Source of the DNA: a virus
Taxonomy: Duplodnaviria; Caudoviricetes
Direction: 5' to 3' (one strand)
Length of the DNA: 64,000 nucleotides
IMG/VR virus record: IMGVR_UViG_3300006173_000003
Location: 1-64,000 of that record
Part shown: piece after piece, positions 4,559-64,000 of the stretch
Numbering within the stretch: position 1 is the stretch's first letter
Layout: the number at the start of each line of letters is the position of its first letter
Made by a program: the position numbers and the translations under genes
Notes under the pieces: generated by a model
What the model saw: the letters and a program-made list of their open reading frames with translations, nothing else
Databases searched by the model: none
Told to the model about the DNA's origin: nothing

Positions 4559-4585
4559 TATTTACTCTTTTATATGATTTAATGT

Positions 4586-4999: not shown

Positions 5000-5013
5000 T
5001 TTATGTGATTTTA

Positions 5014-15036: not shown

Positions 15037-15040
15037 CACT

Positions 15041-15167: not shown

Positions 15168-15170
15168 TTT

Positions 15171-16612: not shown

Positions 16613-16614
16613 TC

Positions 16615-29000: not shown

Positions 29001-32000
29001 GAAAATATGAGTCAGATGAGGTGCCAATAGGAATGGTTGGTCTGAAAGAAGAGGAACAGGGGAAGGGATTGGGAACCCTTGCATATATTTTGAAAGGAGA
29101 GGAATACTTGAAACAAGGAAGACATCTTGTGTCCGACGCCCCTCATATTCCCGAGGCTCGAACTGATCAGGCGACAGGTGTTTGGAAAAAACTGGTAAAG
29201 CTTGGACTCGCTACCGAAACAAGCCCAGGGAGTTATCGATATGGAGGGGAAAGGGAGGGTACTTCCGAATCTGGAAAGTATAAGCCCAACATCAGGGATG
29301 ACTACTTTGCTAAAGCGGACTTCTTTACTCCAGAAGAAAAAAAGAAGTTTGAAACTCTGGATGACGATGGGAAGGATAAAATGATTGATGACAAGAGGGC
29401 TGAATTAAAGTCGGCAAAACATTCTGATGAGGAACCGAACAATCTGAGTGCGCAAGATGAACAGGCGGCAAGGGAAGCCGACGCCAATATTTCAAAGCAA
29501 CTACAAGCAAGTTATGACAGACTTATAGCATCCGGAACGGACCCTAGCGATCCAGAAATGAAACGGTTGCAAGAACGAATAGAATCTCTTTCACCAAAAA
29601 CAGAAACCGATGGCAATGTCAAAACAGAGCAAAGCGGCGATAGCCAAAAAGAAGGTGTCTCCGAAGGTAAAGAAAGCGGCCAAGAAAGCGAAGGCCCAGA
29701 CAAAAAAGGGGATGTATTAACTCCCGAATCAGAGACGGGTGCGGCAAAGCCTCCGGAGGATAAACCCGCACCCACCCCTGAAAACTCTTCCCCAATAGTA
29801 GGAATAAGGGATTCTATCGTCAACGCAGACCGTATCCATAAAGGATTAGAGCCATTGGTTAAAGAATTTACCCGACATTGGCAGGATAACTGGAATCAGA
29901 TTAAAAAGAACATTCGGAAAGGATTTAGCCCGCGTAAATTCATTGAAGATACAGCCGCAAAGATAGCCAGGGAAGACAAGGATAACCAAGGGCGAAAATC
30001 AAAAAAGAGAACAACGTTTAGCGATTATGATTATGCGACGCTACTTTTTGATCGACTGGATATTCAAAACAATATAGCCAGAGCCGATGATGTATTAAGG
30101 GATGCGAAAGAAAAAGGAGACATGGGATCTGAAACAGCCGCTCAACAACTTCTGGATCGATATAACGAGCAGTTAATGCAAAATGACATTGTAGGTCGTC
30201 GCATGAAATCGGAAAGCGGTCGAGCCTTATCTGCTATCCAGATGATGACAAAAATGGATGGAGAATTGGTAAATTGGACTCGCGACCTTGCTAATTTGTA
30301 TCATGGAACGATGCCCGATGTCCTTAAAACTTTCGTTGAACGTATAGAAAAGGATTACAAACAGAAGACCGAAGAACTTCGACAACACTATGAATCCCTG
30401 TTACAAAAAGCTGCCGAAGATGCTTTCACAAAATGGCAAGAGGATGCCACAAAAACAAAAAAAACAGACAAGCCGACAAAAACGGTAAAAACTCAGGGCA
30501 AAGAATTGGCCGATAAAATAAGGGGGTTACGGGATAAACTTGGAACCAATAAGCGTGATTCCTTGCAGTCCAATATATTTGGGTTGCCTATTGCCATTGC
30601 CGACAGCGCATTAGTCACAATAGCCAATTTGGTAGAAGGGGGAGCTAAGTTGATAGATGCTATTAATGAGGCCCTGAAAGATGTTAAATTTGATAACGAA
30701 AAAGATAGGGATGCCTTCATTTCCCATCTTCAAAACACCGAAGACCCGGAATCCGAACAGGCTAAAAGGGCAAACAGCATTGAAAATATAAAAAGTATTG
30801 CAAAAGAACAGGGTGTAACCACGCTTCCCCCAGAGGCCAATAAAGACTTACAAAGTTTAATGAAGTCCTACATAAAAGACGGAGTCAAGTCGTTGGATGA
30901 ATTGGTTAAAAAAACGATGGAAGACATTAAAGGCGACCTTCCAGATGTTGAAGAAAGGGATGTGCGGGATGCTTTTTCTGGTTACGGGCCTAAGCCTGAC
31001 GGAGAATCTAAAATGAAGTCAGATTTAGCCAAACTTAAAGAACAGTCACGTAAGGTTTCTGAATACCAAGATTTACTTCAAAAGCCTGCCGGGGAAACGC
31101 TAGCACAAGAGGCAAGGCGTCTGGAAAAGGCCCGTAAGTTAGCTGATGAAGTAAATGGGTACATGCGTGAAATGGGTATCGAGCAAGAGCCGCCTCCGAC
31201 TACACCAGAAGCTAAAAAGGCACTAGCACTAGAGAAATCTAAGGCCAGAATGAAGTCTGTGATAGAAGGTTTGAATAAGCAAATATTGGCCGGTGAACGC
31301 AAGGAACGAAATGGCATTACTCCTGATAGGGAATTGTCTGTTCTTAAATCTGAACGCGATCGGTTGTCTAAGCAGTTGGATGAAATCGAAAAAGCAAAAG
31401 TATCTCCCGAAGAAAAAATAAAGCAGACCGTAGATGCTTTAAATCGGCAGATACTAAATTACGAAAGACAAATAAGAGAAGGAGTAGACCTTATGAAGCC
31501 AAAAGAAGAACGCCCTTCGACCAAACAAATAGAACAACTTCGTAAGAGAAAGAATGAGCTTAAAAAGGAGGTAGAAGGCATACGTAGGGATACAGACCCA
31601 AATTATGATCCTCAAAAAAGAGCATTGGAAGATTATAACGAAGGACTGCAAAAAAGAGCATGGGAATTGGAAGATAAGATAGAAAACAAGGATTACGCCG
31701 AACCAGAACCACCAAATAAAGTAGATTTCTCAAAGGATAAAAAATCTATTGAATTGGAATCCAATATCAGGAAATTGGAAGCTAACTTTTATGCGGCAAG
31801 AAAGGCAGGAGAACTAATAAATAGGTCTTGGTTACAGAAAGCAATGTCATTCTTAGCCTCACTTAAACGATCTTTTGTATTATCCAGGATATCGACTTTC
31901 GGACGGCTTGTTGCTGCTGACTTTTGGTCTAATGCGGTGTTCTCCCCATTGGAATCCGTGTCCGGGACTGGTCAATATTTGGGAACAAAAATAGGCTTTG

Positions 32001-33274
32001 CTAAAAAACTATCCCAACAAGCTGATAGATATGGAGTTTCAACCAAAGGAGATTTAGGCGCAATATGGAAAGGAGAGGTGGCGGCTATCAAGGCTCTTGG
32101 AAGCCCACAAACGTGGAAAGATTTTGTAAGCGATGCAAAGAATGGCTATAGTGAATTGACATTAATGTATGCGGAACATCAACACATAGGCGTGCCTAAA
32201 GAATTAAGAGACCATTGGCAAACAATAGAACATGGATTGGAGGTCATAGGAAGGACTCACGGAGCAGTGAAAGGAATTTCCAAAAGGATGGAGTTCATGC
32301 GGTCATATGTGATTAGAAAAGAGGCAGCGAGAAGAAAAGGCGCTGACGTGGATAATCCTGTGATTCAGGCTTCAATAGGAGCAATGGCGTACAAGGACGC
32401 GCTGAGACACATATTGATGGAAGACAACATGGCCTCTAAAGGGTACGCATGGGTAATTGACAAACTCGAAAAACAAGGTCTTGCCTCTCAATTTCTGGCT
32501 CTGGGGATGAAAGAATTGATGCCTATCGTCAAAATACCTACCAATCTCGTGTTAAATGCAGTAAGGGGAGCCGTTGGTACTCCTTTGGCCGGGGGAATGA
32601 TTGCTTTTAGGGGCCTTGTAGAAGTAATGAGTAAGGGAAACAGCGAATGGGGCATAAGCAAATTGACGCCAGAGCAATCCGACGCTTTGTTACGTAACCT
32701 ACGTAAAGGTAATGTTGGCATGGCCTTAATGATAGCCGGATTCGTCGCTCCCAATATGTTTGGCGCTGCTCATTATTATCAAAAAGGATCAGAACAGCCA
32801 GAAGGATTAGCAGAAGGAGAAGTTAATTTCTTTGGAGTGACCGTCCCTCGTTGGCTGGCTGATAATCCTTACTTAGTCACTATGAAAATAGGGGCATCTT
32901 TACGTAGCGCGTTTGATTACTATACTGACGAGAAGGATCAATCGTTTGCCAAGGCTGGGGCTAATGCGTTAATCCACACAATGGCCGGAGCAGCAGAAGA
33001 AACACCTTTGATTGGCTCCCCGGCTCAATTATATCAAGCCGCCACTGGATATGGAGGCGATTATTTCTGGTATAATTTCGTTAAGGGAACTGCTGAACCC
33101 GGACTGCTTCAAGAAATCGCTGAGGATACGGATAATACAGAAAACAATTTAAGGAACGTAATATTCGGGGATTTTATAAAACCAAGTCCCAGAATTAAGA
33201 GAAAACCATCATCCATTGGAGAGGCATTAGAAACAGGACTTCCAGGGGCCAGAGAAAACGTGGAAGAAAAATAA
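26012..33274 (+). CDS. Giant ejection/polyvalent protein (2420 aa) with a GNAT-like domain
   Basis: Extensive coiled coils; IGMVGLKEEEQGKGLGTLAY motif near 29020-29090; C-terminal hydrophobic helices. Confidence 0.7.
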   Translation: MGKSVRSNNPFVLGAEDSDQIPVKQQPQQQPNNPFVLGAQDSHYVKKKAGGDGSASDTSHTPSESPEQAAKAFQDKTLTKQSVDVLADTDAGKKAGLNNMSPDAREVFAQAHNGPKKSDLVQSVTGILDTYFPKSLDPAQNKKTFDMKQAILQGNQDAIIGTRDNLIQGLQKKIDQRKNEIYRPLPGTLGAKQYSDALLEADATIQQLKAQQKKVTDSFNEYGKQSLVSSKDMEAWLKLDAEHPNIQTSIASEKLGKAVEEKYGIERETPNKEHDRMASGMRLIMQSLQMDVNEALAYGIPTKNPELLKKAQDKIATLARYRDMYEKLDTEQFPDVGLDKTARFLGDIIAEKHPNKLIRTAADVREAGKIANERNPGFMDKYGKFVETAAQKQDQGTFIPRGGGVINEFVGGVISASARNALDLLKWKARAGTLSETDKTDLSRETSPGLRGTTQSGTETTKITYDKEGKAYRELPNENYSTLPWNNFFRFAGESAPGLAEFIAAEGTAKVATEALSFGRAGAATKQFAGLLGATYLTSYNSNREFADANIDDKTSTGEAKKIVLANLLTVANAGVFHALGASPSKLVEKAISKAVTPDVLEVLEKNSWEQLSQKTAEKLLKDKILPRAKAIVQKFGENLEGGAKMGAASVIDQKIHDLAGVMTNTNYRPSTVEDNARSFVQQALLMTVVGLPGMISSGAMPHTTREALHEAGLYGPQYIDQINERVQNGDLDPVKANGMIAMIKTMHEELGKAAKETNDDGTPLTIHQQRDLAIANFRKRAAASMEEQGLPVSKEGAESEADKDIKNIKQQNNWQNIEDTPTFKSIKEQQGKALESSLRNKEDVQNALDNDKSLTDKQRNNLEKAIENIDEYIEMFKSQKPVESLSDIDPTARYYYEKDGKIVLESGSDLIHHLETGDIYEKEKPDNKKTPTEKTENTEVKGKDAEDKKTSAIAQPVSEKGKAAIKEANEREKEVEDAGFNFLTQEDDGEFYNKNRKYESDEVPIGMVGLKEEEQGKGLGTLAYILKGEEYLKQGRHLVSDAPHIPEARTDQATGVWKKLVKLGLATETSPGSYRYGGEREGTSESGKYKPNIRDDYFAKADFFTPEEKKKFETLDDDGKDKMIDDKRAELKSAKHSDEEPNNLSAQDEQAAREADANISKQLQASYDRLIASGTDPSDPEMKRLQERIESLSPKTETDGNVKTEQSGDSQKEGVSEGKESGQESEGPDKKGDVLTPESETGAAKPPEDKPAPTPENSSPIVGIRDSIVNADRIHKGLEPLVKEFTRHWQDNWNQIKKNIRKGFSPRKFIEDTAAKIAREDKDNQGRKSKKRTTFSDYDYATLLFDRLDIQNNIARADDVLRDAKEKGDMGSETAAQQLLDRYNEQLMQNDIVGRRMKSESGRALSAIQMMTKMDGELVNWTRDLANLYHGTMPDVLKTFVERIEKDYKQKTEELRQHYESLLQKAAEDAFTKWQEDATKTKKTDKPTKTVKTQGKELADKIRGLRDKLGTNKRDSLQSNIFGLPIAIADSALVTIANLVEGGAKLIDAINEALKDVKFDNEKDRDAFISHLQNTEDPESEQAKRANSIENIKSIAKEQGVTTLPPEANKDLQSLMKSYIKDGVKSLDELVKKTMEDIKGDLPDVEERDVRDAFSGYGPKPDGESKMKSDLAKLKEQSRKVSEYQDLLQKPAGETLAQEARRLEKARKLADEVNGYMREMGIEQEPPPTTPEAKKALALEKSKARMKSVIEGLNKQILAGERKERNGITPDRELSVLKSERDRLSKQLDEIEKAKVSPEEKIKQTVDALNRQILNYERQIREGVDLMKPKEERPSTKQIEQLRKRKNELKKEVEGIRRDTDPNYDPQKRALEDYNEGLQKRAWELEDKIENKDYAEPEPPNKVDFSKDKKSIELESNIRKLEANFYAARKAGELINRSWLQKAMSFLASLKRSFVLSRISTFGRLVAADFWSNAVFSPLESVSGTGQYLGTKIGFAKKLSQQADRYGVSTKGDLGAIWKGEVAAIKALGSPQTWKDFVSDAKNGYSELTLMYAEHQHIGVPKELRDHWQTIEHGLEVIGRTHGAVKGISKRMEFMRSYVIRKEAARRKGADVDNPVIQASIGAMAYKDALRHILMEDNMASKGYAWVIDKLEKQGLASQFLALGMKELMPIVKIPTNLVLNAVRGAVGTPLAGGMIAFRGLVEVMSKGNSEWGISKLTPEQSDALLRNLRKGNVGMALMIAGFVAPNMFGAAHYYQKGSEQPEGLAEGEVNFFGVTVPRWLADNPYLVTMKIGASLRSAFDYYTDEKDQSFAKAGANALIHTMAGAAEETPLIGSPAQLYQAATGYGGDYFWYNFVKGTAEPGLLQEIAEDTDNTENNLRNVIFGDFIKPSPRIKRKPSSIGEALETGLPGARENVEEK

Positions 33275-33278
33275 AAGC

Positions 33279-33854
33279 ATGATACTACTATCAGCACATA
33301 AAGATACTATAAAGAATAACTACCAACTTCGGTATGAAAAAGGAGAGTTTATAGGATTGTTGGATAATTGGATAGGGGTATTTATTACGAACCTACTTAT
33401 TTTTGATGATCCTAATATCGCAAGACTTGAAAAAGATGGAGAGATTAGAATATTTATGGGGGATAGCGAAGAATGGGGAACAATTACTCCGCTACCCCAT
33501 TTAGATGATAAAGATATTGTGTTGGTTATAGATGTAGAGACTGGCAAAAAGTACGACAAATACGACTTGGCGTTTGTTAATATATCTGGATTTCCAAAGA
33601 AGGAAATAAGAGGTCTTTGTGATCATTTAAAATGGGAAGGATTTTCAGTTTTGAGTAAGTTTTATGATGGGGATAGGAATAATGAGGATGAGGCATGGCA
33701 ATGGAGAAAGAAGGGGGTTAGAGTTATAAGTATAGTTATCCCTTGTAATGATGCCGGGAAAACAGGATGGCACGTGGACAATTGCACCATTTCGTATGAA
33801 AAAGTGGTTGTTTGTAAGGAAGCCATAAAAAGAGTAATAAATTATTTGTTATGA
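33279..33854 (+). CDS. Zn-dependent exopeptidase (M28/M20-like fold)
   Basis: SAHKD, LLDN, SEEWG, VIDV, WH: the complete metal-ligand set. Confidence 0.75.
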   Translation: MILLSAHKDTIKNNYQLRYEKGEFIGLLDNWIGVFITNLLIFDDPNIARLEKDGEIRIFMGDSEEWGTITPLPHLDDKDIVLVIDVETGKKYDKYDLAFVNISGFPKKEIRGLCDHLKWEGFSVLSKFYDGDRNNEDEAWQWRKKGVRVISIVIPCNDAGKTGWHVDNCTISYEKVVVCKEAIKRVINYLL

Positions 33855-34051
33855 ATCTTTGTAATGGGAGAGTGTCGATAATCGATGACCCAGAGGTTGG
33901 TGGACGGGTCATTTTAACATTTTACCCCGACAATAAACCGATTCATTATAGTGTGTCATATTGGGATTTGAAAGAGTTGCTTGAGAAGTCAAATTCATCT
34001 ATTAAACTAATAGATAGCAAATTCACTTTAACGGAAAATCATGGAAATTAA
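33851..34051 (+). CDS. Hypothetical protein
   Basis: 66-aa ORF overlapping both neighbours. Confidence 0.5.
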   Translation: MNLCNGRVSIIDDPEVGGRVILTFYPDNKPIHYSVSYWDLKELLEKSNSSIKLIDSKFTLTENHGN

Positions 34052-35324
34052 TTTGAAAGACAAAACAGTTTTAGTTTTCGATTATGGCGGATTCGTTGAA
34101 GTGGCTATTCGTTTGTCCAGAGACTTTGGCCGTGTGTTATATTATTGTCCATACGAAAGCGAGTTTATGAAGCATCAGCCATATATAATTGGCGATGGCA
34201 TACCATCAGTGGAAAGGGTGAATAACATATGGGATTATTACCATGAAGTAGACTTATTTGTGTTTACTGATTTGCATCAAGGGCCATTTCAAGATTGGCT
34301 TAGAGAACATGGGAAATTAGTGTTTGGCGCTGGTCGTGGCGAGGATATGGAATTGTATAGAGATAGAATGAAGTCCCTTCAGAGAGAAATAGGATTACCT
34401 GTAAATGAACATTGGATTGTAGAGGGGCTGGATAATTTGAAAACCTTGTTGGAACCAATGGAAGACGTGTGGGTAAAAACAAATTTATTCAGGGGAGACG
34501 GAGAGACATGGCACTATATAAATAAACAATTAAGTGAAGAAAAATTGATAGAGCTAGAGGATTCCTTAGGAGCCAACAGGGACAACGTTATATTTGTGGT
34601 AGAGCAGTCTATTAAAGATTGCGTTGAAGCCGCTTATGATGGATTTGCCATTAATGGGCTGTATACCCGGATATGCCCTGTTGGGTTGGAAATAAAGGAC
34701 GAAGCGTACATAATGAAGTTGGTGGAATATGATAAAATACCCAAACCACTGAAAGATGTAACAGATAAATTAGCTCCGATATTCAGAGAATATAACTACA
34801 GGGGAGACTATGGCAATGAGGTAAAAATACTTAAAGACGGAACTGGATATTTATTGGACCAAACAACACGATGCCCCTCACCGCCAACTAGCATAAAGAT
34901 AGAAATAATTGAAAACTATAGTCAGTGTGTATATCTGATTGCAATGGGGATGGTTCCTGAAATAAGGTATAAATACAAATATGGGTGTCAAGTATCCATA
35001 AAGAGTGATTGGGCCAAGGCAAAGCCGCAGCCGGTTTATTTCCCGGAAAAATATAAAGACTTTGTTAAGTTAAAAAATTTATACATTGATAAGGATGGGG
35101 TTTATAAATATATACCCAAAAAAGATTTAGAAACTGATTACGCTGGTGCAGAAGGAATAGGAGCGGTTGTTGGGCTGGGAAATACCTTAGAAGAAGCTCA
35201 AGGTATGTGTAAAAAAATAGCAAAAGAGGTAAAAGGGTATGGTATATACATCGAGTCTCATACCCTTGATGCGGCTCAAAAGGAATTAGACAAGTTAACA
35301 AAGTTTGGAATAAAATTATTTTAA
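34041..35324 (+). CDS. ATP-grasp amide ligase, PurD (GAR synthetase)-like
   Basis: FGAG..E.MELYR..MK, VWVKT, VVEQ, YRGD, LLDQTTRCPSP. Confidence 0.75.
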   Translation: MEINLKDKTVLVFDYGGFVEVAIRLSRDFGRVLYYCPYESEFMKHQPYIIGDGIPSVERVNNIWDYYHEVDLFVFTDLHQGPFQDWLREHGKLVFGAGRGEDMELYRDRMKSLQREIGLPVNEHWIVEGLDNLKTLLEPMEDVWVKTNLFRGDGETWHYINKQLSEEKLIELEDSLGANRDNVIFVVEQSIKDCVEAAYDGFAINGLYTRICPVGLEIKDEAYIMKLVEYDKIPKPLKDVTDKLAPIFREYNYRGDYGNEVKILKDGTGYLLDQTTRCPSPPTSIKIEIIENYSQCVYLIAMGMVPEIRYKYKYGCQVSIKSDWAKAKPQPVYFPEKYKDFVKLKNLYIDKDGVYKYIPKKDLETDYAGAEGIGAVVGLGNTLEEAQGMCKKIAKEVKGYGIYIESHTLDAAQKELDKLTKFGIKLF

Positions 35325-36092: not shown

Positions 36093-38318
36093 ATGGGTAA
36101 ACTGATTCAAATATGGGAACATGCGGTAACAATTCCTGAGCCAAAGGACAAAAGAGATATTCTTTTCTTTGACCAAAAAGACCCGTATTGGATAAGGGAA
36201 GAGGCCCTGAGTGATTATCGGGATATCTTCTGGAATTTTGTTCCCAGGCACACAAAGTTGTATCAGTCGGCAACGCTTTATGATCAGGACGGTGTTTTGA
36301 TTTCCCTTAACAAAGATGACAGTGATTATGTGGTGAGAACATATGAGCGAGAAATGTATCGACGCACATATGGGGTTCACGTAAAGATGGGTAAGGAAAT
36401 AGTCTGGTTGACCGGAGATCATTGGTTCATATTAGCACACTGCAAAACGAAAAGGCCAGATAAAAAATCTGACTATTTTGACTTTAGGAAGTTTCAGGCT
36501 AAATTCCTTATGTTGCTATGGTATGTGAACTTTCATCCGTGGGCAGAAGGAGGAGTATTCAGCAAGGCAAAAAAAACCGGGATAACAAATCTGATGTGGC
36601 TTTATTATTTAAACAAAGCCACAATGACTAAGAATGTGAACCTCGGAAATATGAATATCGACTTAGATAAGGGGGCAAAAACATTTAGGGACCATTTTCT
36701 GTACGCCTATCATGGTCTTCCTATGTCATTAAAGCCGCAAATAAAAAGTCTTACGGAGAGAGAAGGGAAAGTTGTTTTCGGTCAACAGTTTACTAATTCA
36801 AAAAAAGCCAGATTAATTCAATCCGATGCCGATAGCGAACTAGGAACATCCGTAATGTGTGTCCCTACTATGATGCAGGCGTTTGACGTTGACGTGTTTT
36901 CTGATACATGGTACGATGAATTTGTTAAACCAAAGCAGGACTTCGGAGAGATATATAGGTCTAATGAGGCTGCAACAAACTTGCAAGACACGTCCATCGG
37001 GAAAAGATGGCTAACATCGTATACGCCAGAAGAATCAGGCCCCTCTTTTTATTCTGGGAAGCAGATATTTTATGATTCAGAGCTTTCGACGATGAATAAG
37101 CCGGGGAATAAGGGGAAAACAACCAGCCGGATGATTTGCGCCCACATTCCCGCATACGAATCTTGGTCGTCTTCTTTCGATAAGTATGGAGAGTGTAACG
37201 AAAAAGACGCAATGGAGAAAATAAAAGACGGTAGGGATAGGTTACGTGGACGCCCAAGAGAATTACAAGCGGAAGTTCGTCGTTATGCCAATACTAAAAA
37301 AGAAGCATGGTCGGTAGGTGGTATTGGTAGTGTGTTTGACAACATGAGACTGGGCTCACTGCTATCCGAAATAGAATCAGAAGAAAGGGATATCACAGGT
37401 AATATGTATGTGGAGGGTGATTTGAAATGGGAAAATGAAATATGGAACATACAAGCGTCCCGACGTCGGAAGGGGGAATTTTGCCGACTTAGATTTGTTC
37501 CTTTATCGGAAGATGAAAAAGAAAAAGGTGAATCCGGAAAGTTCAGGATGTACTACGATATACCAAGAGACCATCAAAATCTAGCGTTGAAATTTGGTAA
37601 AGATGAGTGGGGGTGCTTAATCCCACCCAGTAAATTTCCTTACGTTTTAGGTGGAGATCCGACATCATATGCTAGTGCTTCTGAGACAATAGAGGGGTCT
37701 AAAAATGGAGGATACGTGTTTAGTATGCCAGATGAATTGACCGATGCTCGGATGCGTAGAGTTGCCTCAAAAATAATGATTATTGAATATTTCGACCGGC
37801 CAGAGTCGCCGGACGAGGCTTTTAACGATTATCTTAAATTGATATTGTATACTGGGGCTTTGGCAAATATTGAAGCCAACCAGTCCTACGTATGTACCCG
37901 GTTGATGGAAGAGGGGCTGGGTCGGTTCATGCTGGTGAAGGATGAAAATGGGATTGTCACTCTTTGGAAGCGATGGATGGGGCTGGCGCATGAATCTGAA
38001 AAGTCCTATAAGTTCATACGTACAACGGCCAACGCTGACAGCAAAGACATGCTCGAAACAATTGTCCGGCTGATAAAAGCGTACTTTGAGAAGCCAGCAG
38101 AAGGTGGAAAGGACTATGGGGCTACCTTTAAATCGGCAAGAGCAATTAACCAGTTGATGAACGTGGACATAACAAATACAAAGGTGTTTGACTTGTTCAT
38201 GGCACTGGGGTATGCCCTTTTTGGGGTGGAATATTATCAGGATATCCTCTTATCTGAGCAATCCGAAGAGCAAGACCCGGAAAACATATCCAGCGTACTT
38301 TCAGCCTTTGAATTGTAA
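36093..38318 (+). CDS. terL: Terminase large subunit
   Basis: Variant Walker A SKAKKTG, Walker B WYDE, nuclease motifs GGDPT, NIEAN, DLFMA. Confidence 0.85.
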   Translation: MGKLIQIWEHAVTIPEPKDKRDILFFDQKDPYWIREEALSDYRDIFWNFVPRHTKLYQSATLYDQDGVLISLNKDDSDYVVRTYEREMYRRTYGVHVKMGKEIVWLTGDHWFILAHCKTKRPDKKSDYFDFRKFQAKFLMLLWYVNFHPWAEGGVFSKAKKTGITNLMWLYYLNKATMTKNVNLGNMNIDLDKGAKTFRDHFLYAYHGLPMSLKPQIKSLTEREGKVVFGQQFTNSKKARLIQSDADSELGTSVMCVPTMMQAFDVDVFSDTWYDEFVKPKQDFGEIYRSNEAATNLQDTSIGKRWLTSYTPEESGPSFYSGKQIFYDSELSTMNKPGNKGKTTSRMICAHIPAYESWSSSFDKYGECNEKDAMEKIKDGRDRLRGRPRELQAEVRRYANTKKEAWSVGGIGSVFDNMRLGSLLSEIESEERDITGNMYVEGDLKWENEIWNIQASRRRKGEFCRLRFVPLSEDEKEKGESGKFRMYYDIPRDHQNLALKFGKDEWGCLIPPSKFPYVLGGDPTSYASASETIEGSKNGGYVFSMPDELTDARMRRVASKIMIIEYFDRPESPDEAFNDYLKLILYTGALANIEANQSYVCTRLMEEGLGRFMLVKDENGIVTLWKRWMGLAHESEKSYKFIRTTANADSKDMLETIVRLIKAYFEKPAEGGKDYGATFKSARAINQLMNVDITNTKVFDLFMALGYALFGVEYYQDILLSEQSEEQDPENISSVLSAFEL

Positions 38319-55571: not shown

Positions 55572-56210
55572 ATGAATAGAAGGAAACATAATATTGGCGA
55601 TAAGTTTGGCAGGCTGACAATATCTAAAATTCTTCCTAACCGAATTGTGGAAGCAGAGTGCGAATGCGGCAAAGTGAAGGAGTATCATTTTAACAACATT
55701 ACCTCTGGGAAGACATCTTCTTGTGGTTGCTATAATTCAGAGCTTAATTTTAAGCATGGCGGATGCGCTCACCCGCTATACACTGTTTGGGAGGGAATAT
55801 GCCAGAGGTGTTATAGTAAAAATCACCAAAACTATAAAAACTATGGAGGGAAGGGGGTTACTATGTGTAATGAATGGAAAGAAGATTTCGGGTCGTTTAA
55901 AAAATGGGCATTGGATAATGGATGGAAGAAGGGATTGAAGGTGGATAAAGATATTAAGGCCCCCAAAACAGGTCCAAAAATATACTCACCAGATCATTGT
56001 TCTATAATAACTCATCAAGAGAATTTAAGAAATAAGGTAGACAATAAAATAATAGAATACAACGGCGTTTCTTTGTGTTTAACCGAATGGTCTGAAGTAT
56101 TGGGAATAAAATACTGTTGTTTGAGAGCTAGAATAGATAGGGGCTGGGACACAGAGCGGGCTTTCACAAAACAAAATTTTACTCATAATCAAAAAAGAAA
56201 GGTTGCGTAA
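55572..56210 (+). mobile_element. Free-standing HNH-type homing endonuclease-like gene
   Basis: KFGRLTI, CECG, TSSCGC, QRCY...YGGKGV.MC.EW, YSPDHC, WSEVLGI; more AT-rich than its flanks. Confidence 0.75.
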
Positions 56211-57546: not shown

Positions 57547-58326
57547 ATGATTGACGTATACGACTTATATCAGAGCTTTTGCAGTACATACAATTTGTAC
57601 TTAGGCGGATGGTTTCGACCTAACACCGATTTTTTGCAAAAATGCAATGATATAAGTAAGGAGTTGTGGGTAAAGTGGACGGAAGAAGCAGAGAAATCTC
57701 AGGAAGCAAAAGATAATCTTTTGCCATTTCTTGTTTCTAAGAATATCATAGTATCCAATAAGGGACCGTATGGAACTTTTCCAATCCCAAAAGATGAAGA
57801 GAAGCCATATGGAAGGTTTTCGGCAGCTAGGATCATTGTTTCGGGAAAACATTGTGTTCCTTGCAAAGAGGTAGACGGAGGCAGGTGTTCTAATGGTGAT
57901 TTTACCAGCTCGGAACAATTGGCCGAAGATTATTACAATACAATTGAGCAAACAGATGTTGATCTTGTCGATAATCAGAAATGGGGAGCTTGTAATTCTC
58001 ACTTGACTAAAAAACCTTCTCTTAAAAAGCCAAAGATGAGGCAGATAGACGATGGATTTCAGGTTGCTCCAAGGGAGGTTAGCGTTATAGTATTGGATTA
58101 TTACAGGCCACCAAAAGAGGCAACGTTTGTGTATGATAAGAGTCCGGGTAATGAACAAACTGGGGCTGGGGATATGATAATCTATGATCAGAAAAATAGC
58201 CAACCATTAGAATGGCCTTTTAATATAAGAGAAGAGTTTTTGAATCGTTTGGGACAGGCTTATGGAACTTTTACAAAGGATCAGTTTCTTAGCCAATTTT
58301 CAGCACAACAAAAAGCAGCAAGCTAA
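57547..58326 (+). CDS. Putative tail ring/tubular protein (start at ATG 57547, not 57367)
   Basis: MIDVYDLY...; VLDYYRPPKEA.F.Y...L.W pattern of ring proteins. Confidence 0.55.
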   Translation: MIDVYDLYQSFCSTYNLYLGGWFRPNTDFLQKCNDISKELWVKWTEEAEKSQEAKDNLLPFLVSKNIIVSNKGPYGTFPIPKDEEKPYGRFSAARIIVSGKHCVPCKEVDGGRCSNGDFTSSEQLAEDYYNTIEQTDVDLVDNQKWGACNSHLTKKPSLKKPKMRQIDDGFQVAPREVSVIVLDYYRPPKEATFVYDKSPGNEQTGAGDMIIYDQKNSQPLEWPFNIREEFLNRLGQAYGTFTKDQFLSQFSAQQKAAS

Positions 58327-59087
58327 TGCCTAGTCAAGATTTTACCACATTGCAGCAATTGTTAAACTATACTAATACGTACTTCGTTACCAATGGGGTT
58401 AATTCCATCACCGGAGACGAAGGGAATAATATATTGAATGGGTTCGGAAAGTTTATTCAGTCGTACACAATGAATAACGGGTTGGCCGGAATATCTTCTA
58501 GTAGCGGCGTCGTTCCTTTGTCTAAGCCTGTAACTATATTTTCAGTTGCTCCGACTTCGTTTAATTGGACCGACAATGTTCAACAAGAGTATTATATCGT
58601 AAACGCCACTGGTGTTGCCATAAATGCGACATCGGGATATTCCTTTGTGGATGCATATGGGACAACGCAGACATCCATTGCGGCTAGGGATTCGGTACAT
58701 ATTGCTAAGGCGACGAATGGGACATGGTATAGAATAAACAACGTTTCCGGGTCTGCATCTGGCGGATTGCCTCCGATGACTGGTAATGCAGGAAAAGGTC
58801 TGTTCACCGATGGAACAAGCGCGTTTTGGGGAGATAATGTTCTCCAGATACCAGCAGGAGACGCAAATTATACCGATGCTACAACATGGGTAAATGGAAG
58901 TAGCTATAATCTGGTGCTTCCGAGTCCTCATTTCTTGCTGTTTTGGAACGAGACCAACAGATTCTTGCTAAGAAATATAAGTCCAGTCGAGTACGGATAT
59001 GTAACAAATGGGTTTAAAGTTTTTGTTCCGGGATTTGACGGATCAAATTCAAATGTATTTTTATTATTCAAAGGAGCAACTTCGTAA
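58326..59087 (+). CDS. Tail fibre anchor / collar protein
   Basis: FVTNGVNSITG..N.IL N-terminus; PMTGNAGKGLFTDGTSAFW fibre motif. Confidence 0.6.
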   Translation: MPSQDFTTLQQLLNYTNTYFVTNGVNSITGDEGNNILNGFGKFIQSYTMNNGLAGISSSSGVVPLSKPVTIFSVAPTSFNWTDNVQQEYYIVNATGVAINATSGYSFVDAYGTTQTSIAARDSVHIAKATNGTWYRINNVSGSASGGLPPMTGNAGKGLFTDGTSAFWGDNVLQIPAGDANYTDATTWVNGSSYNLVLPSPHFLLFWNETNRFLLRNISPVEYGYVTNGFKVFVPGFDGSNSNVFLLFKGATS

Positions 59088-59089
59088 GC

Positions 59090-62000
59090 ATGAAAAAAAT
59101 ATTATTCATAGTAGGTCTTCTGATCGGTTTTCAGGTTGCTTTTTCGCAATCCAGCCCTACCTTTTTGCCTCCAAGGTCATCTGCTACAACTACGGTTCAG
59201 GATTCCAGACTTAGAGCGTTGCTGACATTTTATTATCCACATACGCATGGATTAACGTTAAACGGAGGGTTGGATACTTTGGGAGCCGTTATATACGAAG
59301 ACAGCAGTGGGCACGTCTGGTATAGAGACACTATTCCTGCTGGGGGGCATAGATGGAGAATGATGTTGAGTTTTGGAGATCCAACAGGGGGAGTATCTTC
59401 TTTCAATACAAGAACCGGAGCCGTAACGCTTACGTCTGGTGACGTGATTACAGCGCTTACTTATACTCCAATAAATCCCAATGGAACATCGTCTCAGTAC
59501 ATAGCAGGAGATGGATCAAAAGTTACCTTCCCGACTATACCAGAGCAAATAAATATTACTGATGCTGGTCTCTTTGTTCATTCTGGAAGCTATCCAAATT
59601 ATACGTTTACCGGGAATACTCCTACGCAGCAACAGGTTTTTACTCAGGGATCTACCCTTAATCAAAATAACTTCTGGGTAACAGGAGCGAATGTTTTAGG
59701 AATGACCGGGACGGCAGCTTTCGGATTGCCTACGGGAAGCACATCGCAACGCCCATCGTCTGCCGGAGTAGGATATTTCAGATACAATACCGATAGCGCT
59801 TCAACAGAAACATATAATGGAAGTCAGTGGATTAAAACGGGTACAGGAACGGCCATAACAGGGGTTACAAGTTTCAATACAAGGACGGGTGCTGTTACTT
59901 TGAACTCCTCTGATGTTACAACCGCATTGGCTTTTACGCCATATAATTCCACCAATCCGGCTGGCTATATTTCTAATATAACTGGAAAAATAATTAATGG
60001 AGCCAATATAGTCATAACCGGAAGCGGAACCGGTGTTGATCCATATGTAATCATCGGAACTGGTGGTGGGGGAGGTGGGGGGAATACCAATTCAAATATT
60101 GGATCGGGGTATAGGTTTGCGGTTCCCAACACCAACAGTATAAAAACTTTATTCTGTTCAGGATGTACGTTGGATAGCACCACGAATGCCAATGCTCTTA
60201 CATTAACGGTAACTGGGGGTAGTGGAATTACCCAATTAACAGGGGATGGAACCGCTGGGCCAGGATCGGGAAGCCAGGCATTTACTTTAACGACCGTCAA
60301 TAGTAATGTAGGAACTTTTGGAAGTGCATCATCGGTTCCTGTTTTTGTCGTCAATGGAAAGGGTCTTGTGACCGGCGTAACGAATACATCAATTCAGATA
60401 ACTGAATCTCAGGTAACGAATTTAACAACAGATTTGGCTGGCAAGCAACCAACTGGAAATTATATAACTGGGATTACTGGAGATGTTGTCGCCACTGGCC
60501 CCGGATCGGTAGCCTCTACAATTCAAGCAAACGCGGTAACTACAGGAAAAATAAATAATAACGCTGTTACCTATGCAAAATTTCAAGCCTCTTCTCAAGC
60601 TGCTTTATTGGGGACAAATGCTGCCGGAAATTTTGGAGAAATAACGTTGGGGACTGGATTGTCTTTTAGCGGCTCAGTTTTAAATGCAACAGGGGGAGGG
60701 TCTCAGACATTAACGTATACTCAGCTTGCTCTCAATAACACACTGTCTATTAGTGGGGGTAATACCCAGACATTTCTTGTAGCTACCCACGCTTTGGCAG
60801 GGTTAATGGATTCTGCATCAAAAGCCGTTGTAGACAGCTTGCGCCTTAGAACTTATACTTTTCCTTCTGGCAGCGGATTGACGGCAGGAGGAGGATTCTC
60901 TCCATTATTCACCAATACGGTAACTGGGTCTACTCTTAATTTTGTTGCCTCCAATGCTGCTGCTAATTCTGCTTTTGGAAATTTTACTGGATCACCAGCG
61001 CCGGCAGCATTTGGGAAACTTCCCCTTGCAGCAATGGCTACAGGAACAGCCAATACTCTAATAGGATATGATGGGTCTGGTAATCCTTCGGGAATAACAG
61101 TGGGCTCCGGATTGTCGCTGGTTAGCGGTACATTAAGCTCTACAGCAGGAGGAGGTAGTGTTACAAGCGTAGGACTCGCATTGCCCGCTAGTTTATTTGC
61201 TGTTTCTGGTTCCCCCGTCACCGGTGCGGGAACTTTAACCGGTTCATTCAATACTCAAAACGCAGGATTCGTTTTAGTGAGCGATTCGGTAAATAATGGT
61301 CAAGTGCCTACCATGCGTCATCTTGTGGTTAAAGACCTTCCAGTATTTAGCCCGTGGCCCGCAGAGGCTCCAATGGGAACCATATACAGTAAATCAGCAT
61401 GGTCATTGCCGGTCACAGATTTTATTCCCGGACCAATAGCTCAGCTAACATATGCAATCAGCACAGAAGGTTATTTAAATGTTACAGGTCCATCCGCAGT
61501 AACGTTTAACAACTATGCTAGAGTGTTACAGCAAAGACCGACCCAGCTACCCAGATTTACGGAGACTGTCGTTTTTAAAATGCTGACCACTCCTGCCGCT
61601 GGAACGGTAGGATTTGGAATAGGCATTAAACAAAACAATGGAGCCATTGGAGATTTCACGGCATATGTCAATACGACAAATAGCGGATCTTCTGGCTTTC
61701 TTACCATCGTTCGTTCAGACGGTAGCGTTACTTATCAGAGTGGGTCCAGTTCAAATACTGTACACTTGAATGATGTCATGCAATTAAAGGTTGTGTATGC
61801 CGACTCCGTTGTAACGGCTTTTTTGACTAATATAACTACTGGTATTACGTCTACTCCATTAGTATGGACAAATACCATCCCAAGTGCTGTTAGTCCTCTT
61901 TTTACGGATTGTAGTTTTTCTTTTACACCATTTGGGCCAGCCACATACCAAATCCAATCCTATACTATTACCTCTGAAACCATTAGGAATGCAAATATGA

Positions 62001-64000
62001 TTTTCATTGGGGACTCAAAGACCCAAGGATTTAAGGCTAATTTTTTCAATGGTAGATTCGGGTGGCAAATGGGACAGTCTTTCCCGTCTGCTGTAATTTG
62101 GGCTGGAGGTTCCAATAAAACTACTGATGTCCTTCTGCAAATGGACGAATTGTCCCAATTGAACGGAGCCAATATTTTTATGAGTCTTGGATCGAATGAT
62201 ATTCGGGGAGGAGCTACAGTGACAGCAACAATGATTAACTATAACAGAATAGTTAATATGCTCCGCGCCTATGGTGCCAACGTATATCACATGGTATTCC
62301 CAGAAGACTCTACGTCTACTGGAGTTGGATTAACAGCGCTGAAGAATGCAATACTAGCAACATACCCTACAACATATATAGACACATGGGACACGCTTTC
62401 TACAGCAGGAAATAATATTTTAAGAGCCGCTTACCAAGGAGATGCCGTACATCCAAATCAGGCCGGTAATGATGCCATAGTCCGAGCAATTAATGCCAGT
62501 GGATTTGGTAAAGTAATTGCTACAAATAGGAAATCGGCCTATAGAATCACTGATGGTAATATTAAATTCAACGGAGACAGTTTATTCTTATTCCCCATTG
62601 ACAAAAACACAAATTATGTAAACCACTGGACAAGCAATGGTAGTTTTACAACTGGATTATTGCAGGACAATGGAATTGTATCCGGAGCCTCTGCCTCTCC
62701 ATTGGCCCCAGTAGCCAACACCATATTTAATGTTAATGGAGTGCTGGGTATTCAGGGAACAAGTGGTGGAATTTTGTTTTCAGGTAGAGACAACGCAGAT
62801 CAAACAATAGGAGAGGCGGCTATTTTTTGCTCAAATTATGCTATTCGGTATTTTGCCAATGGAGTCCAGACATTCTCTGTAGATTCCGCAGGAAGAGCAG
62901 CGATAGGCAATGTGGCTGTAGGCAATGGAGTAAATGCGTTCTTGTCTATAAGCCCTGGTCTTGCCGCTAGACCCCCTCTTAGATTTACTGTTAATGGGTC
63001 GGTGCTAACATCAACCCCACAGGCAGGCGCATTAGAGGTATTAGTTGATAGCCTTTATTTTACAGGGAATAATGGTACAAGGAACAAAATATGGCCACAA
63101 TCCGCAAGTGGAGGTAATCCATTTGCAGACAACACCGCATTGGTAAAGAATAATGCAGACAACACAAAATTGCTAATCTTAAGCGCTGCATCCATTTCCA
63201 CAGCAACCACAAGGACGGCAACCTTCCCAGATGCAAATATCACTGTAGCAGATAAATTAAGCCCTTTAAGCCAATTCGCTTCTACCACATCTGCTCAATT
63301 ACTTGGAGTCATTTCAGACGAAACAGGGACCGGATCATTGGTATTTGGGACATCTCCAACTATTGCTACACCCCTCTTCACTGGATTAACAAGTTCAGGA
63401 GCCAATGACTCAGTTCTTACTGTTGATCCTACCACTGGGCAATTACATAGAAGATCTGGGGCTTTCAATTTATTCTTCGCAAACGGATTGACAGCAGCAG
63501 GAGGGGATAGTGCATATTGGGGAGGAACTTTAAATCAGCCCACTACCATTTCTGGAGCCGGATTCCCTGTATCGTTGGGGACTTCGGGAAGCAACTTAGG
63601 AGGTCTATCTATTACAGGTGGAAAGTATAACAGTGCGCAAGGGTCTCAAATATTAGGTGTGGCCTCGACCATAAATAATGCTATAACAGCAGGTAGCGGG
63701 AACGTTACCAATTTTTCTGCATACGCTTTCTTGGCCCCCACGATTACTAGTACGAATACTTCGGTTACTTATACAACTCCATCCACTTTATATATTGACA
63801 ATGCCCCAACGCTAAGCACAAATTCTTCTGCAACTGGGAGGGTGTATGCATTAAATGTAAACGCAGGAATAAATCACTTTGGATTAGGGCCTGCTAATGT
63901 TACTGCTCTTTTTGATGGTTGTGTATTTGTAGGAAATGCAACTATAACCGGAAACACATTGTTAGGCATTGGACCTTCAACTGCTACTCAAACAGCGGTT
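59090..64000 (+). CDS. Very large tail-fibre/spike-like protein with an N-terminal Sec signal peptide and an SGNH hydrolase domain (at least 1637 aa, runs off the window, not in the ORF track)
   Basis: Frame open by hand translation from ATG 59090 to 64000; MKKILFIVGLLIGFQVAFS-Q; fibre motifs SFNTRTGAVTL x2, LPTGSTSQRP, SDETGTGSLVFGTSPT; GDS/GSND/DAVHP at about 61990-62495. Confidence 0.85.
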   Translation, partial: MKKILFIVGLLIGFQVAFSQSSPTFLPPRSSATTTVQDSRLRALLTFYYPHTHGLTLNGGLDTLGAVIYEDSSGHVWYRDTIPAGGHRWRMMLSFGDPTGGVSSFNTRTGAVTLTSGDVITALTYTPINPNGTSSQYIAGDGSKVTFPTIPEQINITDAGLFVHSGSYPNYTFTGNTPTQQQVFTQGSTLNQNNFWVTGANVLGMTGTAAFGLPTGSTSQRPSSAGVGYFRYNTDSASTETYNGSQWIKTGTGTAITGVTSFNTRTGAVTLNSSDVTTALAFTPYNSTNPAGYISNITGKIINGANIVITGSGTGVDPYVIIGTGGGGGGGNTNSNIGSGYRFAVPNTNSIKTLFCSGCTLDSTTNANALTLTVTGGSGITQLTGDGTAGPGSGSQAFTLTTVNSNVGTFGSASSVPVFVVNGKGLVTGVTNTSIQITESQVTNLTTDLAGKQPTGNYITGITGDVVATGPGSVASTIQANAVTTGKINNNAVTYAKFQASSQAALLGTNAAGNFGEITLGTGLSFSGSVLNATGGGSQTLTYTQLALNNTLSISGGNTQTFLVATHALAGLMDSASKAVVDSLRLRTYTFPSGSGLTAGGGFSPLFTNTVTGSTLNFVASNAAANSAFGNFTGSPAPAAFGKLPLAAMATGTANTLIGYDGSGNPSGITVGSGLSLVSGTLSSTAGGGSVTSVGLALPASLFAVSGSPVTGAGTLTGSFNTQNAGFVLVSDSVNNGQVPTMRHLVVKDLPVFSPWPAEAPMGTIYSKSAWSLPVTDFIPGPIAQLTYAISTEGYLNVTGPSAVTFNNYARVLQQRPTQLPRFTETVVFKMLTTPAAGTVGFGIGIKQNNGAIGDFTAYVNTTNSGSSGFLTIVRSDGSVTYQSGSSSNTVHLNDVMQLKVVYADSVVTAFLTNITTGITSTPLVWTNTIPSAVSPLFTDCSFSFTPFGPATYQIQSYTITSETIRNANMIFIGDSKTQGFKANFFNGRFGWQMGQSFPSAVIWAGGSNKTTDVLLQMDELSQLNGANIFMSLGSNDIRGGATVTATMINYNRIVNMLRAYGANVYHMVFPEDSTSTGVGLTALKNAILATYPTTYIDTWDTLSTAGNNILRAAYQGDAVHPNQAGNDAIVRAINASGFGKVIATNRKSAYRITDGNIKFNGDSLFLFPIDKNTNYVNHWTSNGSFTTGLLQDNGIVSGASASPLAPVANTIFNVNGVLGIQGTSGGILFSGRDNADQTIGEAAIFCSNYAIRYFANGVQTFSVDSAGRAAIGNVAVGNGVNAFLSISPGLAARPPLRFTVNGSVLTSTPQAGALEVLVDSLYFTGNNGTRNKIWPQSASGGNPFADNTALVKNNADNTKLLILSAASISTATTRTATFPDANITVADKLSPLSQFASTTSAQLLGVISDETGTGSLVFGTSPTIATPLFTGLTSSGANDSVLTVDPTTGQLHRRSGAFNLFFANGLTAAGGDSAYWGGTLNQPTTISGAGFPVSLGTSGSNLGGLSITGGKYNSAQGSQILGVASTINNAITAGSGNVTNFSAYAFLAPTITSTNTSVTYTTPSTLYIDNAPTLSTNSSATGRVYALNVNAGINHFGLGPANVTALFDGCVFVGNATITGNTLLGIGPSTATQTAV

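Follow-up and report, generated by a model that had tools for sequence, protein, structure and literature searches.

A fibre-like protein of a Bacteroidota phage carries a predicted Sec signal peptide conserved across its family

Results

Genomic context of the fibre-like gene

Toward the end of the 64,000-nucleotide stretch of viral DNA analyzed here (the window), which is part of a 73,438-bp virus record, lies an ORF of this uncultured phage predicted to encode a fibre-like protein of 1,768 amino acids. In agreement with the original prediction, this ORF has no stop codon in the window; in the full record, the stop is reached at position 64396, such that the ORF spans 59090..64396 on the + strand. 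The features of this ORF and the gene preceding it are listed in Table 1. No start codon stands between the preceding in-frame stop and the ATG at 59090, which comes 2 nt past the stop of the upstream gene encoding a 253-residue protein. The two genes are probably co-transcribed and translationally coupled. A downstream start of the fibre-like protein was rejected, as the TTG at codon 26 is not kept in relatives and the next in-frame ATG, at codon 91, falls inside a conserved domain. These comparative data contradict a true start lying further downstream, one of two objections foreseen when the locus was first described.

The 253-residue protein matched no Pfam or PHROG family. Its gene occupies the same position in a close relative (L003) and is absent from a more distant phage that encodes the same N-terminal domain (G001), in which a 713-residue protein is conserved. 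Given this absence, the 253-residue protein was set aside as a candidate conserved leaderless docking partner. Indeed, no conserved leaderless partner of the fibre-like protein was identified among the neighbors compared with relatives.

The fibre-like gene follows the structural genes and precedes the lysis genes. The earlier description of this position as the end of a tail operon is plausible, with TerL and a portal-like protein being encoded upstream, although weakly shown, since the other structural genes match no family. Maribacter phage Panino is a distant relative in terms of TerL and portal, and its structural proteins do not bear leaders. Downstream of the fibre-like gene are three genes encoding leader-bearing proteins, namely, a 142-residue anchored protein, an RCC1-PKD protein and a beta-helix protein. 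The latter two found no match among cultured phages.

Table 1. Positions of the fibre-like ORF, its predicted features and the preceding gene in the window.
Feature	Position	Strand	Remarks
Gene encoding a 253-residue protein without a leader	58326..59087	+	Directly upstream of the fibre-like gene; stop 2 nt before its ATG
Fibre-like ORF, portion within the 64,000-nt window	59090..64000	+	1637/1768 codons; remainder extends to 64396 of the record
Predicted Sec/SPase-I signal peptide, residues 1-19	59090..59146	+	Lys-Lys n-region, hydrophobic core, A-x-S site
Conserved mature N-domain, residues 20-100	59147..59389	+	Starts at invariant Gln20; candidate attachment/anchor domain
Invariant sequon D62-T-L in the N-domain	59273..59281	+	D-S/T in 85/85 aligned N-domains
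Short fibre repeat motif, copy 1, residues 104-114	59399..59431	+	Motif common to many phage fibre proteins
Short fibre repeat motif, copy 2, residues 261-271	59870-59902	+	Same motif as copy 1
SGNH/GDSL esterase domain, residues 972-1128	62003..62473	+	Pfam PF13472, E 4e-14, 53.8 bits, cut-off 32.9

A signal peptide followed by glutamine is conserved across the family

The translation from 59090 was read heuristically for a positively charged n-region, a hydrophobic h-region of 7-15 residues and small, uncharged residues at positions -3 and -1, with Gln at +1 being considered for the Q-rule. The N-terminus contains K2 and K3, a 15-residue hydrophobic stretch (residues 4-18), A-F-S at positions -3 to -1 (A17 at -3 and S19 at -1) and Gln20 at +1. 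The Sec signal of the original prediction, with its basic N-terminus, hydrophobic core, A-x-S site and Gln at +1, is thus borne out. In Bacteroidota, Gln at +1 following SPase-I cleavage is referred to as the Q-rule (PMC5837995, PMC10653852). In the predicted structure, the leader is modeled as a helix. Of the record's roughly 100 ORFs, only the fibre-like gene, the next three genes, the lysis genes and a handful of small early ORFs have a strongly hydrophobic N-terminus.

A profile comprising the signal and the next ~85 residues matched 558 protein clusters. When the representatives of the best 150 of these clusters were considered, the match was N-terminal and behind a hydrophobic leader in 148, the two remaining sequences being 5'-truncated gene calls, and Gln was found at +1 in 147. 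Likewise, in aligned close homologues, the conserved domain came in every case (24/24) after a basic n-region, a hydrophobic core that varies and a small-x-small site. Across the family, the sequence of the leader varies while its hydrophobicity is retained, and it is the mature domain that is conserved. Because it is kept across the family and because hydrophobic N-termini are confined to few genes of the record, the leader is not a chance feature; the second objection, namely, that no signal would be present, is contradicted by the same comparisons. Moreover, a leader that varies in sequence yet maintains an n/h/c organization, and that is so consistently followed by Gln, presents the signature of SPase-I processing rather than that of a folded or docking helix.

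O-glycosylation sequons are enriched in leader-bearing proteins

The general O-glycosylation system of Bacteroidota recognizes the sequon D-S/T-A/I/L/V/M/T and acts only on non-cytoplasmic proteins (PMC12871550). The fibre-like protein contains 15 copies of D[ST][AILVMT], as compared to 6.0 expected (2.5-fold; p about 0.0005), all of which fall in that part of the ORF found in the window. The downstream beta-helix protein contains seven sequons, where 2.2 are expected. By contrast, no enrichment was seen in any of 17 leaderless proteins encoded by this phage. Across 122 homologues, the sequon was 2.46-fold enriched in leader-bearing proteins vs. 0.80-fold in leaderless proteins (Mann-Whitney p 2e-15, with the relatedness of the sequences in these tests meaning that p-values overstate independence). 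In 112 further family representatives, enrichment was 2.61-fold, while control motifs gave values of 0.70 (D[ST] followed by other residues), 0.62 (E[ST]-hydrophobic), 1.01 (N[ST]-hydrophobic) and 0.86 (reversed motif). At the invariant D62 sequon of the N-domain, the third residue is canonical in 71 of 85 aligned N-domains. The phage also carries a glycosyltransferase cluster of its own (14392-19412).

As the enrichment is specific to leader-bearing proteins, it offers support for export that is independent of the leader itself. Together, leader conservation, the Q-rule and sequon enrichment support the assignment of the fibre-like protein as a putative Sec/SPase-I substrate that is exported. 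The export proposed in the original prediction is therefore backed by three computational lines of evidence; as its destination, the virion, the envelope and release in free form all come into consideration.

The mature N-terminal domain

The N-domain is always found directly behind the leader. Q20, R29, D38, P50 and D62 are its invariant positions, with Q20 forming an invariant column in all three family alignments. Searches of 185k species genomes with two pattern sets yielded no match to the N-domain, and three scans of IMG/VR returned one locus in one scan and none in the other two. A first AF2 model of the N-domain, generated from a 21-sequence alignment, was discarded (pLDDT 51), while a second, generated from 85 sequences, reached a pLDDT of about 80. 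Comparison of this model with the PDB revealed no significant fold match (Foldseek E above 0.7; best VIA Z 4.2, below the usual noise level), nor did any known virion-docking domain match significantly in these Foldseek and VIA searches. Comparison with BFVD gave marginal matches (best E 6e-4), and the ESM Atlas returned sub-threshold viral clusters only. Tailspike N-terminal or neck pieces were frequent among the weak structural matches, a hint only.

Fibre architecture, esterase domain and C-terminus

More than 700 residues of the protein consist of fibre repeats. Its internal segments gave matches to proteins annotated in cultured phages as tail fibres or virion components, including one of 72% identity over 39 residues to MW202697, and leaderless homologues bear tail-fibre domains, such as Peptidase_S74. 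A tblastn search of cultured phages revealed no close relative of the protein, with a single 39-residue module being matched; PHROG matches were to families of unknown function only, and a sequence search of the PDB gave no match. As such, the earlier description of the protein as fibre-like stands in that its internal modules match annotated fibres and virion proteins, although this support is at the level of modules only. At the level of the family, the conserved N-domain is combined with C-terminal enzymes that differ widely (GDSL, pectate lyase, SASA and others), which is the layout of a fibre or tailspike. Here, the SGNH blocks are intact, comprising GDS (Ser976), G-x-N-D (residues 1034-1037, including Asn1036) and D-x-x-H (Asp1118 and His1121), and the esterase domain is predicted to be active.

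Surface display via the T9SS, for which the original prediction had pointed to the C-terminus, gained no support. Neither a T9SS sorting domain of type A or B nor any other C-terminal family was detected in the whole protein (NCBIfam, E up to 0.1, a search that a very divergent domain could escape), no Pfam match was found in the last 398 residues at E up to 1, and none of the three leader-bearing neighbors presented a T9SS sorting domain in NCBIfam. Neither a lipobox nor Cys at +1 is present, and residues 1-355 contain no Cys. The C-terminal domain is also found in a related phage fibre (L006).

Discussion

A proposed route for the exported fibre

The cytoplasm is regarded as the site where tail fibres fold and dock. 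The sequence features described above suggest that a fibre-like protein of a Bacteroidota phage very probably matures instead in the periplasm, and not in the compartment where tailed-phage particles are built. As to its subsequent fate, we consider it modestly probable that the protein is an exported, glycosylated and periplasm-folded fibre that binds or modifies the receptor and docks on particles after the inner membrane is breached or upon lysis. This account builds on what the sequences show, namely, a conserved signal that obeys the Q-rule, enriched sequons and intact esterase motifs; what we infer beyond these is cleavage, cyclization, glycosylation, trimer formation and, above all, attachment of the fibre to virions.

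According to this account, the protein would be a late product of the structural operon that passes through SecYEG of the Bacteroidota host. Cleavage would occur between Ser19 and Gln20, with the new N-terminus being cyclized to pyroglutamate by the glutaminyl cyclase of the host. The general periplasmic O-glycosylation system of the host would then modify D-S/T-hydrophobic sequons, and the glycosyltransferase cluster of the phage might tailor the glycan. Folding in the periplasm would generate a long, probably trimeric fibre with an active SGNH esterase, while the downstream leader-bearing RCC1-PKD and beta-helix enzymes would take the same export route. The fibre, serving as the receptor-binding and receptor-modifying fibre of the phage, would not meet the cytoplasm-built particle until the inner membrane is opened by the holin or the cell has lysed, and would dock through its conserved N-domain.

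Virion association of the exported fibre may be considered on indirect grounds, namely, fibre architecture, genome position and the MS/MS-annotated, non-homologous proteins of Cellulophaga phages discussed below. At the same time, detection by MS in purified particles is no proof of attachment, and joining fibres to particles only after membrane disruption looks inefficient. Indeed, we know of no precedent for such attachment in tailed phages.

Other explanations

One could also imagine that the protein is exported but is not part of the virion. Here, the fibre-like protein and the two downstream enzymes would be free or envelope-anchored in the periplasm, or released, and would deacetylate or cut host surface polysaccharide from the inside, so as to destroy receptors on the cell or on debris, block superinfection, or loosen the capsule or biofilm for progeny. 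The same signal, Q-rule and sequon evidence would apply, the SGNH, beta-helix and RCC1-PKD domains are enzymatic, and no virion-docking fold was recognized in the N-domain, which could tether the protein to some component of the envelope, a role also proposed for the N-domain in Bdellovibrio MAT fibres. Precedents include the exported tailspike- or fibre-like bacterial proteins WceF (PMC7949094) and the MAT fibres (PMC10769870), as well as Q-rule proteins of Porphyromonas gingivalis prophages, which, as their authors propose, may modify the host outer membrane (PMC10367356). Still, we judge this explanation unlikely. An enzyme has no need of over 700 residues of fibre repeats, and lysis frees cytoplasmic enzymes anyway. 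A conserved N-domain combined with hypervariable C-termini is a receptor-binding design under host-range selection, the gene is coupled to the structural operon, and analogous leader-bearing proteins were detected in virion proteomes of Cellulophaga phages.

It is improbable that the hydrophobic N-terminus is no working secretion signal but rather an uncleaved assembly helix or temporary membrane tether, or that translation begins downstream, with assembly occurring in the cytoplasm. To our knowledge, all tail fibres studied assemble in the cytoplasm, and a TTG is indeed present at codon 26. Yet, that TTG is not conserved and the following ATG lies inside the conserved domain, the leader is hypervariable while keeping its n/h/c layout and the Gln at +1, both leaderless family members are truncated gene calls, and sequon enrichment is specific to leader-bearing proteins. 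Lastly, transfer of the exported fibre across the outer membrane by the T9SS or as a surface lipoprotein, for display on the infected cell, is highly improbable, since despite the wide use that Bacteroidota make of both and the aromatic last residue of the protein, which follows a beta-rich C-terminal domain, no sorting domain, lipobox or Cys at +1 was found in the searches described above, while the C-terminal domain is common to a related phage fibre, as expected of a fibre tip.

Broader meaning

Tentatively, the proposed export of a virion fibre may be extended to other Bacteroidota phages, represented by at least 558 N-domain clusters together with other leader-bearing fibre classes. Such phages might send receptor-binding fibres and depolymerases through the Sec system of the host, to be capped and O-glycosylated in the periplasm and joined to particles at the holin breach. 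Were the family obligatorily exported, part of virion maturation could occur outside the cytoplasm. Tailed-phage morphogenesis would then include an extracytoplasmic step involving decoration with host glycans, and phages would borrow host glycosylation and N-terminal capping for their most exposed parts. Consequences would follow for the annotation of receptor-binding proteins of Bacteroidota phages, where leaders are at present ignored, for their recombinant expression, which would call for removing the leader and supplying the glycan, and for the understanding of host range and of phage stability in gut, soil and water. The idea can be directly tested in cultured Cellulophaga phages.

Comparison with known systems

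Sec-dependent export is known for phage lysis proteins, including Sec/SAR endolysins and spanins, and, as far as we know, those phage proteins that are exported act in lysis or exclusion and are not fibres. Receptor-binding proteins bearing an SGNH deacetylase are likewise a known design among tailspikes and fibres of cultured phages, yet the esterase tailspikes of which we know lack a leader and assemble in the cytoplasm. In full-text literature searches, no description of tail fibres with Sec leaders was found.

Known Q-rule substrates share the basic n-region, hydrophobic core, small-x-small site and exposed Gln at +1 with the protein considered here (PMC5837995, PMC10653852), but are cellular envelope proteins, rather than a phage-encoded, fibre-like protein read from sequence. 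The O-glycoproteins of Bacteroidota rely on the same sequon, which here is enriched about 2.5-fold and in leader-bearing proteins only; the word "phage" does not occur in a review of this O-glycosylation (PMC12871550).

Similar layouts are seen elsewhere. The MAT fibres of Bdellovibrio bacteriovorus combine a signal peptide, a conserved beta-rich N-domain, a tail-fibre-like trimeric stalk and a variable tip (PMC10769870). When compared by described architecture alone, the signal peptide, N-domain and fibre-like stalk are common to both, whereas MAT fibres are encoded by chromosomal genes of a predatory bacterium, are used on the cell and present an N-domain of about 130 residues vs. about 80 here. 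WceF of Pantoea stewartii is an exported, tailspike-like trimeric beta-helix that trims exopolysaccharide (PMC7949094), but relies on a Tat and not a Sec signal, is encoded in a bacterial EPS cluster rather than by a phage, and lacks a fibre stalk. Prophages of P. gingivalis do encode Sec-leader proteins obeying the Q-rule (PMC10367356), although these are small proteins of unknown function from temperate phages and are not fibre-like.

Finally, in the Cellulophaga phages phi10:1 (gp091-gp095; NC_021802) and phi18:3 (gp085-gp087; NC_021794), a Sec-type leader and Gln at +1 are present in all eight proteins, seven of which carry a structural annotation "based on experimental MS/MS proteomics." Those other MS-detected Cellulophaga phage proteins translated here do not bear a leader. 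The leaders are unannotated in the phage records, and no paper on leaders of Cellulophaga virion proteins was found in the literature. These proteins differ from the fibre-like protein in being much shorter (317-785 residues) and in showing no sequence similarity to proteins of the window, no N-domain and no sequon enrichment. Like the fibre-like gene, however, their genes are flanked by tail or structural genes and by the lysis cassette, and their products include a "tail fiber protein" and "pectate lyases."

The fibre ORF and its leader

The window covers positions 1-64000 of an IMG/VR virus record that is linear and spans 73,438 bp (about 68% complete; 41.6% G+C). The ATG at position 59090, lying 2 nt beyond the stop of an upstream gene encoding a 253-residue protein, is the first start codon 3' of an in-frame stop. 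It opens an ORF that, as originally predicted, leaves the window without a stop, ending at position 64396 of the record to give a tail-fibre-like product of 1768 residues (P0002; here, the fibre). The signal peptide layout claimed for its N-terminus proved exact, since translation of residues 1-20 revealed a leader (residues 1-19) comprising a pair of lysines, 15 hydrophobic residues in a row and A-F-S at positions -3 to -1, directly followed by Gln20. Alternative in-frame starts correspond to a TTG at codon 26, with the next ATG found only at codon 91.

Of the predicted SGNH/GDSL esterase residues, Ser976, Asn1036, Asp1118 and His1121 are all present, while no family match was obtained for residues of about 760-960. 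A T9SS sorting domain, raised in the original prediction as a possibility for the C-terminus, was sought in the fibre, as were a lipobox and any other family; none was found.

Modules of the fibre and selected genes of the virus record
Feature	Location	Remarks
Conserved N-domain, about 80 residues	fibre residues 20-100	directly behind the leader
Gly/Thr/Ser/Asn-rich fibre sequence	some 650 residues after the N-domain	
Repeated 11-residue motif	fibre residues 104 and 261	
Predicted SGNH/GDSL esterase	fibre residues 972-1128	Pfam PF13472, 53.8 bits
Further fibre sequence	C-terminal to the esterase	
C-terminal part	final 170 residues or so	conserved in the fibre of L006, a related phage contig
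TerL	36093-38318	distant relative of Maribacter phage Panino and Flavobacterium podophage proteins
Portal-like protein, 809 aa	45473-47902	distant relative of a Maribacter phage Panino protein
142-aa protein	record 64406-64834, beyond the window	hydrophobic N-terminus resembling an uncleaved signal-anchor
557-aa protein	record 64835-66508, beyond the window	RCC1 propeller and PKD domain; leader with Gln at +1
634-aa protein	record 66505-68409, beyond the window	right-handed beta-helix; leader

Conservation of the leader

A word-based search using fibre residues 1-500 recovered 120 proteins of 970-2900 residues, many encoded on contigs of 60-90 kb, with both leader and N-domain being common to the close homologues. 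In an alignment of 24 sequences, the leader layout was kept while its sequence differed, and the mature domain was strongly conserved from the first residue past the cleavage site. Indeed, in alignments of fibre homologues, M1 and Q20 are invariant columns, with the rest of the leader being variable. A profile comprising the leader and N-domain was scored against 1.84 billion cluster representatives, yielding 558 clusters at E <= 1e-3, of which 159 also pass E <= 1e-10. Among the best 150 of these 558 clusters, the match began at or close to residue 1, a hydrophobic core was seen in 148 and Gln appeared straight after a small-x-small site in 147. The two representatives without a leader start within the leader and are therefore truncated gene calls. 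As read from these sequences, the pattern is that of the Q-rule, namely Gln at +1, described for signal peptidase I substrates in Bacteroidota (PMC5837995; PMC10653852). Further leader-bearing fibre classes with other mature N-termini were also recovered; after one such fibre, on contig L004, there are again proteins with leaders and then a lysis cassette.

Enrichment of the O-glycosylation sequon

In Bacteroidota, non-cytoplasmic proteins are O-glycosylated at D-S/T-A/I/L/V/M/T, a motif enriched in such proteins (PMC12871550). The fibre contains 15 such sequons, where shuffled sequences give an expectation of 6.0 +/- 2.3 (p about 0.0005). There are 7 in the beta-helix protein (2.2 expected) and 8 (0.7 expected) in a 223-residue protein of the lysis region that has a membrane segment at its N-terminus and ends in DUF6808 (record 68790-69461; 10790-11461 of L002, a stretch of the record). 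Of the proteins of this phage that have no leader, 17 were examined and none was enriched. When 122 homologues from the word-based search were considered, the 66 bearing a leader presented 978 sequons versus 397 expected (2.46-fold), whereas the 56 leaderless proteins presented 281 versus 352 expected (0.80-fold); the difference in ratio gave a Mann-Whitney p of 2e-15. The reversed motif gave 0.9-1.0 in both groups. Another 112 representatives of the family showed 2.61-fold enrichment of the sequon, as against 0.70 for D-S/T-other, 0.62 for E-S/T-hydrophobic, 1.01 for N-S/T-hydrophobic and 1.01 for D-A/G-hydrophobic. At the N-domain sequon D62-T-L, D-S/T was found in 85/85 aligned sequences. 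Relatedness of the sequences inflates these p-values; even so, the sequon effect is large, specific to the motif and limited to proteins with a leader.

On another contig, that of protein P0011, a 142-aa ORF is followed in a row by a NUMOD4 gene and a fibre of 1584 residues that is rich in sequons yet has no leader; a mobile element may thus have interrupted a fibre gene here. Elsewhere in the window, positions 14392-19412 hold a glycosyltransferase cluster (GT2 and GT11; weak GT25 and GT47) with an FkbM methyltransferase and no obvious sugar-nucleotide or flippase genes; this cluster could remodel host glycan, including that put on an exported fibre.

Genomic neighbourhood

Apart from TerL and the portal-like protein, no family match was obtained for the structural genes of the record. 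All three genes 3' of the fibre encode hydrophobic N-termini and are followed by lysis-cassette membrane proteins; no comparable N-terminus was seen in the other structural or replication proteins of the record. The leader-bearing accessory proteins in this position end in similar, lineage-specific tails, roughly P-G-V/S-R/K-I/W-I-x-H in this phage (record 64835-68409; L002:6835-10409) and a close relative (L003:15405-17222), and W-G-P-V-R/K-W-K-x-F-K-x-V-N in two related contigs (L006:14574-17672; L007:14093-15517). These tails may be docking or sorting peptides.

An HNH homing-endonuclease gene lies within the structural module (55572-56210), and HNH, GIY-YIG or NUMOD4 genes are found near the fibre gene of relatives, at differing sites. 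A conserved block encoding a giant protein of 2400-2700 residues (with a His_Phos_1 match in relatives) and proteins of 128-192 and 424 residues (window 26012-35324; L006:1-9085, L007:1-9122 and L008:2-9169, the last likewise a related contig) precedes TerL in the window; three phages that are more distant carry it immediately upstream of the leader-bearing fibre. On the minus strand of the early region (4352-5298), three small ORFs present export signals, one a Sec-like leader, another, if taken to begin at an internal ATG, a leader followed by +1 Gln, and the third a lipoprotein-like start; these are possibly exclusion or envelope-modifying morons.

Export and virion association of the fibre

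Export of the fibre, the central claim of the original prediction, is supported by comparative conservation of the leader, the Q-rule and sequon enrichment; given the latter two together, the fibre is very probably exported. The main alternative to a virion fibre retains export, with the fibre and its companions being free or envelope-bound enzymes. For this there is bacterial precedent in WceF, a tailspike-like protein exported by Tat (PMC7949094), and in the Bdellovibrio MAT fibres, 21/21 of which have a conserved, beta-rich domain behind the signal peptide (PMC10769870). Association with the virion is favoured by coupling of the fibre gene to the structural operon, ahead of the lysis genes, and by the design of receptor-binding proteins, with an N-domain that is conserved and C-terminal enzymes that vary extremely. 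In addition, internal modules match proteins annotated as tail fibres or virion components in cultured phages from other phyla, and scans of 185k species genomes of bacteria and archaea, using two pattern sets, did not detect the N-domain. Modelled from an 85-sequence alignment (pLDDT about 80), the N-domain is predicted to be small and beta-rich, with no significant match in the PDB and marginal matches only in BFVD (best E 6e-4), the weak structural matches being mostly tailspike N-terminal or neck pieces. Given export, virion association is considered moderately probable.

A virion-associated fibre would be synthesized late, exported by Sec and cut before Gln20, with pyroglutamate capping and O-glycosylation following. 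Folding would occur in the periplasm, where the 142-aa signal-anchored protein may assist; its gene is not conserved beside the fibre in relatives. The N-domain would then dock the fibre to particles once the holin has joined the two compartments, or following lysis, and the esterase would deacetylate surface polysaccharide at adsorption.

Comparison with known systems

In Cellulophaga phages phi18:3 (NC_021794) and phi10:1 (NC_021802), gp085-gp087 and gp091-gp095, respectively, each open with a leader that is followed by Gln at +1. Both sets adjoin lysis genes on the 5' side, with that of phi10:1 lying directly 3' of tail genes. The records of seven of these eight proteins call them structural, 'based on experimental MS/MS proteomics analysis', with annotations including 'tail fiber protein' and 'pectate lyase'; the other MS-detected proteins that were translated are without a leader. 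The Cellulophaga proteins are neither homologous to those of the window nor sequon-rich; they show only that leader-bearing proteins can occur with purified Bacteroidota phage particles. Over their first ~45 residues, gp086 and gp087 of phi18:3, a podovirus, match gp093 and gp094 of phi10:1, a siphovirus, identically or nearly so (L011:6545-10584 and L012:8101-11392, stretches of the respective genomes). As such, receptor-binding modules with a leader appear to be swapped among phages of different families that infect a single host genus.

Phage proteins known to be exported include those for lysis, exclusion lipoproteins and, in prophages of P. gingivalis, proteins that obey the Q-rule (PMC10367356). 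Full-text literature searches found no account of tail-fibre-like proteins with Sec leaders or with O-glycosylation by the host. Sec substrates and tail fibres are each known kinds. Were periplasmic maturation and late attachment of the fibre proven, the system would be categorically new.
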